Origin: an uncultured Poribacteria bacterium
Lineage (GTDB): Bacteria > Poribacteria > WGA-4E > WGA-3G
Assembly: GCA_951813565.1 (NCBI GenBank)
Contig: OX638351.1
Location: 2,688,001 to 2,752,000, forward strand
DNA length: 64,000 nt
Reading direction: 5' to 3'
In this document: positions 13,788-63,937 of the stretch, piece after piece
How positions within the stretch are numbered: the stretch's first letter is position 1
Layout of the letters: each line of letters starts with the position of its first letter
The notes under the pieces: model-generated
Databases searched by the model: none
Told to the model about the DNA's origin: nothing
Seen by the model: only the letters and a program-made list of their open reading frames with translations
Program-made: the position numbers and the translations under genes

Positions 13788-14333
13788 GGGTGTATAAATA
13801 TTTTGTCACCAGGACTTACGCAAAATGAGCAGAAAAAGGAAATATTGGACTTAAAAAGCCGTAATTTCGGTATTTTATCTCCCCATACGCTATCGCTATG
13901 GGGGCCCGCCCCCTAAATCCCCCTTATCAGAGGACTTTAAGAAAAGGTGCGTAAGTCCTGGTCACTTACTTATTCACGGATTACGCGGATTCTGTAGGAA
14001 CGACCTCGAATTAACGCCAAATGTGCTTGGCAGCATACGCGTATGGTATGCTGCATTCAGTGGGTCGCGACCTGGAGGTCGCTCCTACAAAAAGAAATCG
14101 GGCGGACAAAGCCCTCCAACAAGAGATAATCCAGCATTTTTTCTTAAGTTTACACCCGCAGCATGCCATACGGGAATGCCATAAGGCATTCATATCCGGT
14201 GAATGACTAAAGACGAATGCGCCAAATCAACGGTATGAATGCCCTTTGGCATTCCCCGGGACCCCGCCCTACAGTGGAAAACGCCGCGTAATCATTGCAA
14301 ATTGAACCTATGTAACCAAATATTTACACACCC
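13788..14333. mobile_element. Composite of GGGTGT(G/A)TAAA-ended MITE parts with nested elements
   Basis: Starts GGGTGTATAAATATTT, ends AAATATTTACACACCC; the 3' ~70 bp match the 16634..16728 element; no TSD found. Confidence 0.6.
13810..13960. mobile_element. MITE with CAGGACTTACGCA terminal inverted repeats
   Basis: 13-bp perfect TIR; 5-bp direct repeat GTCAC at 13805-13809 and 13961-13965. Confidence 0.85.
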
Positions 14334-16574: not shown

Positions 16575-16633
16575 TTATCGTATGTGGTATAATAACAGCA
16601 TTTATAAGTTTTGTCAAAGGTGCTTTAGGGAAT

Positions 16634-16728
16634 GGGTGTGTAAAGTTTTTGTAGAAATCCGCCCTACAGTGGAAAACGCCGCGTAATCATTGCAAATTGA
16701 ACCTATGTAACCAAATATTTACACACCC
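16634..16728. mobile_element. 95-bp MITE, GGGTGTGTAAA TIR family
   Basis: GGGTGTGTAAA/TTTACACACCC ends; 9-bp TSD TTAGGGAAT at 16625-16633 and 16729-16737. Confidence 0.9.
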
Positions 16729-16819
16729 TTAGGGAATTGCATTATCCTGACCGTTAGAATACTTAGCAAGCAAAGTAGTTTATACAACACATTGACATTT
16801 TTAGATGAGGAGTCCTTTT

Positions 16820-48765: not shown

Positions 48766-49000
48766 AGGCATGTGTTAGGAGCATTTCTTTGGCAAGTTCC
48801 AAGACCTTGACTGCTTGATCACGGTTGACAGACGGAAAATCCTTCAAAAAATCATCAAGCGTTTCTCCACTCTCTAAATAGTCAATCAGATTTTTTATGG
48901 GAACACGGGTGTTTTTAAACACCGGAGTACCACTCATAATCTCGGCATCACATGTAATGAGATTGTCAACTGTCATGGTCGTTTGTTCATCAAATTTCAT
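48749..49000 (-). CDS. DUF433 antitoxin-like protein
   Basis: IMSGTPVFKNTRVP..YLESG..DFPSV; RBS AGGAG before ATG 49000. Confidence 0.88.
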   Translation of the reverse strand: MKFDEQTTMTVDNLITCDAEIMSGTPVFKNTRVPIKNLIDYLESGETLDDFLKDFPSVNRDQAVKVLELAKEMLLTHAYANSH

Positions 49001-49038
49001 GAGTAAATTTCTCCTGTGAATGCAGTGCCTATATACTT

Positions 49039-49299
49039 GAGGGGTGTGCATAAATAATTCCGATGTTAAATATGCGCTTAAAGGTAGTCCGCACAGGCCG
49101 TGGGTTTCCGTCCACAAGTTCAAAGAGGCGCAGCATGCCACACGGGGAATGCCATAAGGCATTCGGACCGTTGATTTGGCGCATGCTGCGTTGATTTGGC
49201 AATGAATTGCGCGACTACAAACGCATTTCTATAAATCAAGCGGCACCTGGCGTCTGTTCCTGTCTGTGTTGATGCGCCAAATATTTATGCACACCCCTC
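49039..49299. mobile_element. MITE with GAGGGGTGTGCATAAATA TIRs
   Basis: 18-bp perfect TIR; flanks ATATACTT / ATATACTC (8-bp near-duplication). Confidence 0.85.
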
Positions 49300-49384
49300 A
49301 TATACTCAAGGATACTCTATAATTTTGTGGATATCAAGGTTAAGTAGCGCACTTAGAAAGAGAATTATTCTATTCACCCTCATA

Positions 49385-50470
49385 TCAAAATGTGGTTCGC
49401 AAGGTTTGTGCTTGCCCTGTTTCAGCGGAGCGGTATCCCGCATCAAAAATTTCTATCACATGCCGTGCATGCTCCGCAGTAACGATGGTAGGTTTGTCCT
49501 CACGTATCCAGTCAACAAGCTGCATAATATCTTCAAAAACGTGCGCTTCCTGTATGCTGCGATGTGCCCCCACGACGTGTGGTAATTCCCTTTTCGGTGC
49601 ATCAATCGGTTTGCCGTTAATGGTGCTGCCCTCAATTACACCTGCTGTACCGTTAATCGCTAATCCGCCTTTGATTGCGTGTCCAGCTGCTGCGCCATAG
49701 ATAAAGCCAAAGAAGGCATCACCGAAGTCAAGCAGAATAAAGGTGTTATCATCCATGTCGCACGGAAGCATCTCGCCTCGGAATTCGCGTTCTTTGACAC
49801 GCACACCAGAGAAAGCAGTCACTCGTTTCACAGGACCGAGAATGCCGGTCATTGTATGCAATCCGTAAACGGTCATGTCGTAGAGGGGACCTCCGCCCGG
49901 TTTGCGAAAGTACCACGCAGGGTTGATATTGGATAGGACATCGTCACCGTGCCGAACAGATTCACCTTCGTGGTATCTGCCAAAAGAGGATCCAGTGGCA
50001 GCCCATGTCAGTGTTCCGATTGCGCCATCGTTAATCAGTCTGCGAATCTCTTGGTGTATCGGACGCAGCATCTGTCCGGGAGAAGCGACTAATTTGACTC
50101 CCTTGCGCTTTGCCGATTCAATCAGGTCATCAGCCTCATCAACGGTAGTTGTCATCGTTTTGTTAAAATGCGCGTGGAGACCGTGTTCAATAGCGAGTTT
50201 TCCCTGCTCATAATGCAGACCTATGGGTGATGCGATGCTGACAGCATCAACGTGTTCGTCTGCTAAAAGTTCCTCAAAAGTTTCATAAGCATGCGGCACG
50301 TTGAATTTTTCGGATGCGGCTTGTGCTCTGCCGGGGACAGGGTCGCAGACAGCGGTCACCTGTAATCTATCTTGGACATCGTCTTGTGTGAGATGCGGCA
50401 GGATGCCGCGCACAGAGATACTACCGACACCGACGACTCCGATGCGCACCCTGTCATTAGTTGCCATCAT
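49385..50470 (-). CDS. Gfo/Idh/MocA oxidoreductase
   Basis: IGVVGVGSI, AVSIASP..LH, GGGPLYDM.VY. Confidence 0.9.
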   Translation of the reverse strand: MMATNDRVRIGVVGVGSISVRGILPHLTQDDVQDRLQVTAVCDPVPGRAQAASEKFNVPHAYETFEELLADEHVDAVSIASPIGLHYEQGKLAIEHGLHAHFNKTMTTTVDEADDLIESAKRKGVKLVASPGQMLRPIHQEIRRLINDGAIGTLTWAATGSSFGRYHEGESVRHGDDVLSNINPAWYFRKPGGGPLYDMTVYGLHTMTGILGPVKRVTAFSGVRVKEREFRGEMLPCDMDDNTFILLDFGDAFFGFIYGAAAGHAIKGGLAINGTAGVIEGSTINGKPIDAPKRELPHVVGAHRSIQEAHVFEDIMQLVDWIREDKPTIVTAEHARHVIEIFDAGYRSAETGQAQTLRTTF

Positions 50471-50560
50471 ATTTCCTCCAAAGAAAACAAATTTTAGTTC
50501 AGCATATAATTATCCATACATTTTGTTCGCGTAGCATTTTCAAATATATTACTTGAATGT

Positions 50561-50593
50561 AAGAGGCGCAATGAATTGCGCGACTACAAACGC
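50561..50593. repeat. REP (GTAGTCGCGCAATTCATTGCGC family), uninterrupted copy
   Basis: Matches the flanks of the interrupted copy at 49123-49224. Confidence 0.75.
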
Positions 50594-50636
50594 CGTAACT
50601 TCAATAATAGCGTCTACTTATTATGCTTTACTAATA

Positions 50637-51521
50637 TTATTCCCTCCACGATGTTTCGTGTTGCCACCCGACAGCGTTTTTGAGTTTGTCGCAATTGATA
50701 AATGATTGATGTCCTTTTAGCATTCGGACTTTTGGGAGAAATTCCGGCTTAAAACGTTCAACCAATTCAAGGGAAGTTTCTAAAGCAGAAGTGTCATCTG
50801 CGTTGAGAAAATATACATCATGTGGCGGAAGTGTATCTGCTTTTTCCATGATCAAACGGTGCGCACTTGCGACGTCTTCGCTTCCGACCCAACACCAGAG
50901 CCATGGAGTCCAACCTGTTGTCGGTTTTGCATTTTCTGCCATCTGCTTTCTGCGTTCTTCTGGTGTGATACCGGCAGGGCGGGTGATATAGGTTCGGATA
51001 CCGTAAGCACGGGTATAACTCGCTAATAGGTCTTCACCGCAACGTTTAGAGAAACTGTAGGAATCTTCTGGATAGCACGGATGTTCTTCGTCTAAAGGCA
51101 GATAGTCAATCGGCATGTGTGTTTTGCTGATGCGGAACCCGTGCCCTAATGCGCAATTACTGCCGGACATCACCACCGTTTGAACATCAGCTTCAATTGC
51201 GGCTTGCATCAGATAGTAAGTGCCGAGCATATTCGTTTTGAAAGTTGCGTCAAAGGGGATGCCTTTCTCTGCAGCACCGGCACGCATATCTGGATGATCG
51301 ACGGGACCAGGCTGCGCGCCGAGGTGTTGGATTGCGTCTACGCCATCAACAGCGCGTTGACAGTCTTCAAAATTGTTTAGATCGCCTTGGACAAATGGCA
51401 GCTTAGAAAATTCATCGGGCGGTCGTCTGCGGGACATTAGGACAAGTGTATGGCGTTCTGCTAATTCTCGAATGACATACGTACCGAGTCTACCGCTTGC
51501 ACCAGTTATCAATACTTTCAT
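50637..51521 (-). CDS. NAD-dependent epimerase/dehydratase
   Basis: TGASGRLG, YSFSK. Confidence 0.9.
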   Translation of the reverse strand: MKVLITGASGRLGTYVIRELAERHTLVLMSRRRPPDEFSKLPFVQGDLNNFEDCQRAVDGVDAIQHLGAQPGPVDHPDMRAGAAEKGIPFDATFKTNMLGTYYLMQAAIEADVQTVVMSGSNCALGHGFRISKTHMPIDYLPLDEEHPCYPEDSYSFSKRCGEDLLASYTRAYGIRTYITRPAGITPEERRKQMAENAKPTTGWTPWLWCWVGSEDVASAHRLIMEKADTLPPHDVYFLNADDTSALETSLELVERFKPEFLPKVRMLKGHQSFINCDKLKNAVGWQHETSWRE

Positions 51522-51651
51522 GAAAATCCTTTCACATCAATTCAACGATGGTTAAATGGAAGAATTCAGTTGACAGGTGTTAGTGTGTTGTCTATTATTG
51601 TTATGGTATTATAGCACTACTAAAGATTTTGTCAAGTGAACCGTATCTGTA

Positions 51652-51766
51652 GGGTGTGTAAAGTTTTTGTAGAAATCCGCACAACTCCTATTGTAGGGGC
51701 GGGACCCCGCCCTACAGTGGAAAACGCCGCGTAATCATCGCAATGTAACCAAATATTTACACACCC
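51652..51766. mobile_element. GGGTGTGTAAA-family MITE
   Basis: Family TIRs; 9-bp TSD GTATCTGTA at 51643-51651 and 51767-51775. Confidence 0.9.
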
Positions 51767-51789
51767 GTATCTGTAGAGGAGAAGTCTTA

Positions 51790-54223: not shown

Positions 54224-54339
54224 GAGTGGCGTTTGCAGGCTTCCGTTGTTTGCTGTGCTAAACTTGCCTCTTATATGTCGTGGAATGCTTCATTATTATA
54301 CCGTGTTCTATTTTAGAAATCAACTTAAGACTTTGATCT

Positions 54340-54739
54340 GGGTGTGTAAATATTTGGTTACATAGGTTCAATTTGCAATAGACATTCTAATGATTTAATC
54401 TGCGTTGTGTTGTCAGAATCGCGGATTATCGCAGATTTATCGGATGACGCGGATTTTAAGAACTTTGTATCCGCACATTCAACGGACGCATGCACGCCTT
54501 CTGTTATTGACCGGACATTATGAAAACGACTTGTTGTTACCAGTATCCAATAATCCGTGCCATCTGCGTCATCCGATAAATCCGCGATTCAGAAAGTTGC
54601 GCGCGATGCCTCATCTGCCCAACGGACAAACATAAGATTTTTCCGCAGACCAATAACTCACAATTAAAACGTTATAATGTCTAATGATTACGCGGCGTTT
54701 CCACTGTAGGGCGGATTTCTACAAAAACTTTACACACCC
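54340..54739. mobile_element. GGGTGTGTAAA-family MITE (inverted) with nested insertion
   Basis: 9-bp TSD CTTTGATCT at 54331-54339 and 54740-54748; without the insert it is the reverse complement of 16634..16728. Confidence 0.9.
54380..54682. mobile_element. Nested MITE with AGACATT TIRs
   Basis: AGACATTCTAATGATTTAAT versus AGACATTATAACGTTTTAAT (17/20); 3-bp TSD AAT. Confidence 0.85.
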
Positions 54740-54981
54740 CTTTGATCTGGCAGAGACATTCAGTTTGATTTTCTGAGTGAAGTTTGGAAAAAATCAGGGT
54801 TACATACATAAAAATCGGGCGGACAAAGCCCTCCTACAAGAGAGGGAAAGGGTTGCTCCTACAAGGAGAGATATGATCGGAAGATTTTACCTATAAAGAA
54901 TTCGTGATTGGGTAGGAAACATTACTGATAAATTAATCACGATGTGCTATGCTATTTCTATATTTAAAAGGAGGGACAAAC

Positions 54982-63433: not shown

Positions 63434-63458
63434 TTCTAATTGTTTTATGATGGTAGCT

Positions 63459-63845
63459 GGGTGTGTAAAGTTTTTGTAGAAATCCGCACAACTCCTATTG
63501 TAGGGGCGGGTCTCCGGGGAATGCCAAAAGGCATTCGGACCCGGTGAATGACTAAATGTCGTTCATACCGTTGATTTCTTGATTTGGTGCCTGCCCGTTG
63601 CATGGCACGTCCTGCGCAGTGGCGGGGCACAGGGACCCCGCCCATAGGCGTCAATTTAAGCACACAATTACCAGATTGCCTCTTGTGGGAGGGCTTTATA
63701 AGCCCGATTTATATGTATTTATCGGGGTTGAAAACCCGACAAATGCCAAAAAGCGCATTTGGCGTTGATTTGGCAGCATGCCAAACGCGCATGCTGCGTT
63801 GATTCACTCCCACAAGAGGGTATATCCTTAAATTGACGCATAAGG
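63459..63845. mobile_element. Composite MITE/REP cluster
   Basis: GGGTGTGTAAA end matching 51652; sub-element 63641-63845 with GCGTCAATTTAAG/CTTAAATTGACGC TIRs; GTGGGAG REP doublet with hairpin micro-modules. Confidence 0.75.
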
Positions 63846-63937
63846 TACGTTTTCCTAACTGCTCCATAAATATGAATCAAGTTAATGTGGTATTATATAA
63901 AAATTAAAAACAGATTAGGTAATTTAGTAGAAAAGTC

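Follow-up and report, generated by a model that had tools for sequence, protein, structure and literature searches.

A very small hairpin repeat with a fixed one-sided tail in Poribacteria, apparently mobile and nested in REPs, MITEs and itself

Introduction

Why should one copy of a REP palindrome hold 69 nucleotides that another copy of the same palindrome lacks? The question is raised by positions 49123-49224 of the window, the whole 64-kb stretch of Poribacteria DNA analysed here. The original prediction was that small hairpin modules had been inserted there into a REP and into each other, as minimal non-autonomous mobile units that target DNA hairpins and are plausibly moved by a Y1 transposase of the HUH type, either RAYT or the TnpA of IS200. 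The spread of very short non-coding hairpins, whether REPs, SDRs or mitochondrial GC clusters, is a long-open question. From what follows, the unit at this locus is real, and it is an apparently undescribed, very small mobile hairpin repeat.

A stack within a REP within a MITE

At and beside the locus are (positions are those of the window):

49039-49299, no strand assigned: host MITE (about 260 bp) that ends in terminal inverted repeats, is bordered by a target duplication of 8 bp in which 7 of 8 bases agree, and has the REP and nested units as its cargo
49123-49224, minus strand (tag on the minus strand): GTAG-tagged REP, broken by a 69-nt stack at the GAGGC|GCAATG junction
49130-49143, plus strand: 5′ arm of unit A, the C at 49129 closing the hairpin with the G of the tail
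49144-49178, plus strand: unit B, 35 nt, a bulged hairpin whose tail is GTTGATT-TG and which sits at a C|G step within the A loop
49179-49198, plus strand: 3′ arm of unit A with its GTTGATT-TG tail
50561-50593, minus strand: empty paralogous copy of the same REP
49327-49339, no strand assigned: empty site of a sibling unit (hairpin, CATG end), with orthologues filled in the relatives G054, G046 and G044 and empty here and in G036

With 49130-49198 (69 nt) taken out, 49123-49224 equals 50561-50593 exactly, and the insert divides, as had been predicted, into a 34-nt unit A and a 35-nt unit B in its loop; the unit A with a plain loop expected near 63773 is there too, at 63773-63806. The allotment of a C to module B is less clear-cut, this base, which pairs with the tail's G, being readable either as target or as unit. 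The stack folds into one extended hairpin, with a z of -3.2 on one strand and -3.8 on the other, and an Rfam scan of 48900-50700 gave no matches at E up to 1. As regards 50561-50593 being the empty form, it is the same REP letter for letter, but it is a paralogue and not the empty allele of this locus; the series from empty through A, and A with B inside, to deeper nestings lies among copies of the host MITE.

At the same REP junction, that series of MITE copies comprises one empty copy and inserts of 34 nt (2 copies), 69 (13), 76-77 (2), 104-105 (3), 129 (4) and 153 (9); one strict pattern finds 16 full-length host-MITE copies in the genome. The MITE is absent from the orthologous locus in four of the five relatives examined (G054, G046, G044 and G036, the fifth being without an anchor) and, as it holds the REP together with the units, the stack at 49130-49198 came as MITE cargo and was not assembled at this site. 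Eight of ten MITE copies fetched from relatives were readable, and all eight are empty at the REP junction; the ten were picked for split BLAST hits, and so show that empties exist and not how frequent they are.

Ends that match those of the host MITE are found on a three-copy element encoding a DDE transposase (PF01609; its best NCBIfam match, IS982, is below cut-off), which is likely the autonomous partner of the MITE. The element is at L308:1-1221 (G000:C1:3747900-3749120), and its product, 333 aa, is weakly IS982-like and below all NCBIfam cut-offs. The hairpin unit itself has no terminal inverted repeats, as had been predicted, no target duplication and no coding capacity, whereas the host MITE at 49039-49299 has both terminal repeats and duplication. 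A second MITE family, with GGGTGTGTAAA ends, carries REPs and units at 16631-16730, 51650-51768, 54339-54741 and 63458-63895 of the window, and its ends match a 21-copy, 1.46-kb repeat. About 406 kb (7.5%) of the genome is covered by 15-mers present six or more times; IS families are numerous, and a tnpB-like gene is there in about 30 copies.

Abundance, independent sites and distribution

The commonest 9-mer of the 5.43-Mb genome is CGTTGATTT, with 817 occurrences on both strands against a mean of 41 and a median of 34. A detector of hairpin plus tail returned 479 simple, un-nested units (291 A, 188 B) from the genome and none from 1 Mb of shuffled sequence. The 479 fall into 178 site classes and a cross-genome sample of 133 B units has 104 distinct junctions, so that the expectation of a minimal unit recurring independently at many hairpin sites held good. 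The outcomes named beforehand as contrary did not appear: the units do not form one fixed block, empty and filled pairs are common, and of 31 long repeat families with multiple copies, each represented by a single member, just 1 contained a unit. A looser count gives 909 tails in 457 clusters, with only 20 of the 909 in long ORFs of a genome that is 80.6% coding. Orientation relative to neighbouring genes is without bias (108 vs 106) and not terminator-like, and replication strand is likewise without bias (433 of 909 tails), a count that carries no information as the GC skew is too weak to place the origin. Strongly one-sided strand counts of B tails, not seen in this genome, were met in G013 (48 vs 7), G047 (13 vs 1), G049 (18 vs 2) and G041 (18 vs 5), and may reflect either a genuine preference for one strand or units arrayed in tandem.

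A sibling unit has CATG as its end, the target providing ATT-like bases, and is there in 108 copies in the genome, nearly all within other units. Its site orthologous to 49327-49339, which is not in a repeat, is occupied in G054, G046 and G044, and unoccupied in this genome and G036.

That the 49130 stack is MITE cargo, and that a few hosts hold many copies, would suit a purely passive spread, in which the unit rarely moves itself and a few ancient insertions were amplified inside REPs or MITEs and shuffled by gene conversion. Equally compatible with it are the contigs of four sequencing runs over a 19.9-kb stretch with seven unit clusters, which broke at repeats and gave no clean within-species gain or loss. 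Passive spread is nonetheless hardly probable given the number of site classes and junctions, the lineage-specific stems and nestings, the sibling unit just described, and the presence of different unit types at one host site (the GAGGC|GCAATG junction of this REP is empty in 158 copies genome-wide and filled in 88, with several unit types as fillers).

The B tail pattern is present in all 37 genomes of the unit's own genus (36 with five or more matches), and 53 of 57 g5 genomes have it, 41 of them with at least five matches; elsewhere in the phylum sample it was met in 5 of 56 genomes, with one or two matches each. One genome of genus g6, G006, carries A and B units. The unit family spans two large Poribacteria genera. 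Searching with the B pattern yielded at least 122 loci and, among the 80 matches listed, 79 are from Candidatus Poribacteria and one is labelled uncultured. Viral contigs contained no real unit, a single tail-only match inside a gene being judged due to chance. Two sequencing runs containing the window are labelled sponge metagenome, the source being a sponge symbiont, and none of the listed runs with the window is an RNA run.

What is fixed in the unit and what varies

The unit opens with C and G, continues as a stem of 9-11 bp closed by a short loop, and ends in C, GTTGATT and about two variable bases. Its leading C pairs with the G of the tail, and B units have an additional 2-nt bulge at the foot. 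The shared tail that had been predicted is indeed one-sided and constant as far as GTTGATT is concerned, but the two bases that follow vary: in the 479 units they are TG 288 times, CA 78, TC 37, TA 23, CC 17, CG 13, CT 13 and other 10. The supposed common core of the modules, ATGCC..GCAT, is not invariant, relatives having different paired stems; because stems covary while the C-G of the hairpin foot and GTTGATT stay fixed, this core is a trait of a local subfamily.

Among 143 distinct A sequences, five of the seven variable stem positions have several Watson-Crick pair types, above all 500 shuffles (at one of them C-G 88, T-A 21 and A-T 9), a sixth exceeds the shuffles but shows no alternative pair type in its commonest forms, and the last fails to exceed them, the counts being inflated by related sequences. 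B stems covary likewise (42 sequences), and the inner stems of B units in G153 come in about nine different paired forms. Arm-to-arm conversion could be a part-source of the covariation. Free covariation of the stem isolates the recognised features as the hairpin foot plus seven bases. In minus-strand reading a 5′ tag (AATCAAC) leads into an imperfect or bulged stem, and a 5′ tag with such a stem is the layout that TnpA-REP requires (PMC3333891).

Deletion between two inverted units is the probable origin of a symmetric unit, with a tail on both sides, at L310:69-111 (G000:C1:1460148-1460190). In contigs of runs X4 and X6 the fit ends at the loop of this unit, leaving 14-20 letters unaligned, which hints weakly that other strains have a different allele there.

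Junctions, targets and nesting

Three further sites in the window illustrate the forms that insertion takes:

63516-63586, plus strand: unit B with a further B-type unit (63542-63578) at its own foot, one G replaced, in the loop of another GTAG REP
63738-63806, plus strand: two different A units in tandem inside a GTGG-tagged REP, at 63738-63772 (35 nt, TG end) and 63773-63806 (34 nt, CA end)
14158-14257, no strand assigned: rearranged stack, with plus-strand 5′ halves of several nested units joined to a whole minus-strand B unit (14223-14257)

A C directly precedes the unit in 411 of the 479, and the tail of another unit precedes 56 more; in this genome CC stands before that C in 97 of 169 site classes, and the second context across genomes is GG (24 of 104 junctions). 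Comparison with empty forms was made for 65 pooled junction classes, those with three or more occurrences of an empty form in the genome and fetched loci together, unmatched classes and tandem neighbours being excluded. Three lose nothing and 19 lose only C, a clean insertion at C|N, which makes 22 clean classes. The other 43 lose other target bases, mostly one or two, with 12 of the 43 being doubtful matches and with empty alleles being mostly paralogues, so that some apparent losses may be host variants. In this genome alone 21 of 42 classes are clean and 21 replaced. There is no target duplication in any junction class. The 5′ junction is exact and the 3′ junction variable, with small target losses, and one target can have several 3′ junctions, as with five forms at the foot of B across genomes and three at the GACACC|TATGGG host.

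Hairpins are the preferred hosts. Reconstructed empty sites (n=115) fold better than random intergenic CC sites (n=1500), at medians of -4.2 vs -2.5 kcal/mol, and are more often close to REP tags (62% vs 44%), both contrasts being ones that host amplification may inflate. The CC|TAC of inverted REPs is a recurring insertion site. C|T or C|A steps account for 17 of the 65 junction classes and GG|N for 13, with C|C, C|G and G|N being commoner.

Insertion at the unit's own 5′ junction generates tandem arrays, where every one of 89 inner units ends in TG. Adjacent units differ in 69 of the 89, which argues that the arrays are not simple slippage; an age gradient along them has opposite signs in G000 and G054. 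Insertion at the unit foot generates deep stacks in G153. One of its contig regions, L166 (G153:C3:1-1873), has very deep B-unit stacks in which runs of hairpin heads precede runs of remnant tails and the stem comes in many variants. Self-nesting and mixed tandem arrays are accompanied by secondary spread inside MITEs. Orthologous comparison over 800 kb of G054, at a median identity of 83% and with intergenic DNA mostly unalignable, gave one clean empty/filled pair.

The reading to which we incline, tentatively and at rather less than even confidence, is that the 34-35-nt non-coding unit spreads as a single strand through a trans-acting nicking-joining enzyme, likely of the HUH type, that leaves the 5′ end exact and the tail end imprecise. 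What we infer as likely is that a single-strand intermediate exists, that an enzyme acts, which class it belongs to and in which order the ends are joined. The candidate enzyme would recognise the hairpin foot and the tail, the 5′ end of the unit would be joined precisely, just past a CC or GG step in another folded hairpin, while completion at the tail, through pairing of 0-3 bases and repair synthesis by the host, would be imprecise. That last step would have a precedent in the 3′-OH-primed synthesis proposed for BIME amplification in PMC3333891. The same text has TnpA-REP cutting at C|T, including in inverted REPs and at sites such as GACC|TACA (PMC3333891), and the recurrence here of CC|TAC, a C|T site of this kind, argues for nicking and joining; one TnpA-REP enzyme cuts CA too (PMC8266576). 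Against it are the low share of C|T and C|A steps (17 of 65 classes), the GG|N junctions (13 of 65), which misfit TnpA-REP rules, and that the searches described below found no cognate enzyme gene. Known Y1 transposition is precise at both ends, which counts against an HUH enzyme, and 34 nt is too short for a double-strand circle or a DDE transpososome, which counts for a single strand.

An account without any dedicated enzyme is rather unlikely though deserving of real weight. A host polymerase stalled at a hairpin would switch template via 2-3-base pairing (CC/GG), copy the unit and return 0-4 bases downstream, with the tail being a host signal, for instance for primase or a nuclease, that would make free template abundant. 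Short matches at both junctions, small target losses and lack of duplication are what such copying would leave; hairpin hosts, and the failure of any candidate enzyme to track the unit, are also in keeping with it, as is the resemblance of flanking base changes to the co-conversion reported for yeast GC42 (PMC4478555). Plain copy-choice, however, leaves the exact 5′ end at the hairpin foot unexplained. Further, the tail is fixed across two genera, the unit is absent from sister genera with similar replication machinery, and neither Ku nor LigD was found in this genome.

Candidate movers

Ten Y1 matches are present in the genome, five of them IS200/605 TnpA, three RAYT-like and two others. Two of the RAYT-like genes, at C1:242008-242496 and C1:5070794-5071273, are intact and above the NCBIfam cut-off and the other has a stop: L009 (G000:C1:3549545-3550090) contains an in-frame TAG. 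Both intact RAYTs have a unit in the upstream REP. A check had been proposed for a RAYT or TnpA gene flanked by the same module; the RAYT genes turned out to be flanked by GTAG REPs, the hosts of units, and not by units. In two overlapping sets of 30 loci from the stronger-scoring RAYT-like clades, 2 loci of one set and 1 of the other have units close to the RAYT gene, and these units sit within GTAG REPs. The RAYT genes at L088-L117 and L311-L340 belong to several clades, and the GTAG REPs beside them are of many families, which differ even among genes of a single protein clade. Matches to this genome's own RAYT clade came from 14 of 27 genomes of the own genus, from 19 of 26 of g5 and from 2 of 3 of the unit-negative g2, and Y1 genes are present in unit-negative genera. 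The Y1/RAYT search gave no match in G016, G020 and G034 (3 of 27 own-genus genomes; 92-97% complete; 112-200 B tails), and the two end types of resident IS200/605 elements bear, by inspection, no resemblance to the unit.

Precise peel-and-paste by a resident RAYT or IS200/605 TnpA, through a 34-nt single-strand circle, draws on the two intact RAYTs, the stop-broken gene and the five TnpA, on the unit's hosts being RAYT-cognate REPs, on 22 of 65 junction classes being clean and on the recurrence of CC|TAC. It is improbable, since 3′ junctions are variable with target loss and C|G, C|C and G|N steps dominate. The original prediction of mobilisation by RAYT or IS200 TnpA is not supported, as no RAYT is unit-flanked, no Y1 was found in three unit-rich genomes and the IS200/605 ends are unlike the unit; overall, Y1 or RAYT proteins are no more than possible movers of the units.

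Target-primed reverse transcription typically gives one exact end and one variable end with extra bases, and the junctions here would in that respect suit retro-insertion of a small structured RNA, reverse-transcribed at a nick. The genome has a CRISPR-adjacent reverse transcriptase and a second one, and RNA-mediated copying was suspected for yeast GC42 (PMC4478555). Yet a reverse transcriptase was found in only 11 of 27 same-genus genomes and was not found in G038, G044, G030 and G046 (254-500 B tails), and, with the balanced gene orientation and lack of an Rfam match given above, this route is very unlikely; reverse transcriptase fits worse than Y1/RAYT as the mover. A stand-alone reverse transcriptase with a long insert, L013 (G000:C1:3990664-3992061), adjoins the CRISPR array at about 3992400-3993300.

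IS110 and MOB-P relaxase families, like Ku and the LigD polymerase, were not found in this genome. IS91 was not found there either, in a search whose control was also silent, and there is one tyrosine recombinase. The 42 genes with units on both sides include no obvious mobile-element protein and look ordinary by eye from their N-terminal sequences. Two further candidates were rejected. GTTRRRY is the integron recombination motif, and integron-type recombination was set aside with the tail being one base off it and the self-insertion junction not at G|TT. Insertion by Cas1-Cas2 was rejected by reasoning, from no repeat duplication and conserved sequence.

Significance

The unit is likely one of the smallest mobile DNAs. 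Its family provides an unusually rich natural record, with dozens of junction types and a nested series that orders events across about 80 genomes, and, because of this record of junctions, covariation and nesting, the mechanism is testable with short oligonucleotides. If an activity that inserts short oligonucleotides exists it would be a new DNA-writing reaction, and if no enzyme is needed the unit would be selfish DNA running on host replication alone. It is possible, though we doubt it, that this is a new class of bacterial mobile DNA: a 34-nt hairpin plus tail that would copy itself into single-stranded hairpins with one end exact, through an enzyme so far unrecognised or with nothing but the replication proteins of the host, and that would regenerate its targets (5′ junction, loop and foot) and so yield arrays and nested stacks.

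Relation to known systems

Search of the literature, with the SDR paper known second-hand, found no description of a 34-35-nt unit with a GTTGATT tail. The SDR1-8 of Nostocaceae, from Elhai et al. in 2008, are reportedly mobile repeats of very small size, non-coding and confined to a lineage, that insert preferentially at certain sites within other repeats. No enzyme is known for them, and they are said to differ in sequence from the Poribacteria unit, being also from a different phylum. SDR5 is treated in PMC5861425, and SDR work is cited in PMC3116915. Yeast mitochondrial GC42 is, like the unit, an approximately 40-nt palindromic mobile sequence with constrained structure, mutual merging and co-conversion of flanks (PMC4478555). 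GC clusters have short AG or ACT direct repeats resembling target duplications (PMC4478555), whereas the Poribacteria unit is a bacterial sequence that lacks them and carries a fixed tail.

Tagged REPs and REPINs share with the unit a short tag beside an imperfect hairpin, intergenic location and hundreds of copies (PMC3333891, PMC8266576, PMC3116915 and PMC3733652), and for CGTC REPs, as for the unit, no dedicated transposase has been found (PMC3733652). As a short imperfect palindrome that is extragenic and of high copy number, the unit is in these respects a tagged REP. Its tag, however, is GTTGATT (plus) or AATCAAC (minus) and not the GTAG or CGTC of tagged REPs, it moves singly where REPINs move as an inverted doublet, and it parasitises GTAG REPs without flanking RAYT genes. 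In a REPtron the cognate repeats flank the RAYT gene, which those of the unit do not.

IS200/IS605 and derivatives likewise have no terminal inverted repeats, no target duplication and a hairpin plus short motif; the non-autonomous derivatives are called PATEs. The unit differs in having one hairpin instead of left and right ends, a target biased to CC/GG instead of a fixed one of 4-5 nt, and an imprecise 3′ junction. MITEs of the DDE type have the terminal inverted repeats and target duplication that are absent from the unit. On the features tested, then, it resembles a tagged REP or an SDR, yet stands apart from GTAG/CGTC REPs, REPtrons, IS200/605 derivatives and MITEs alike.
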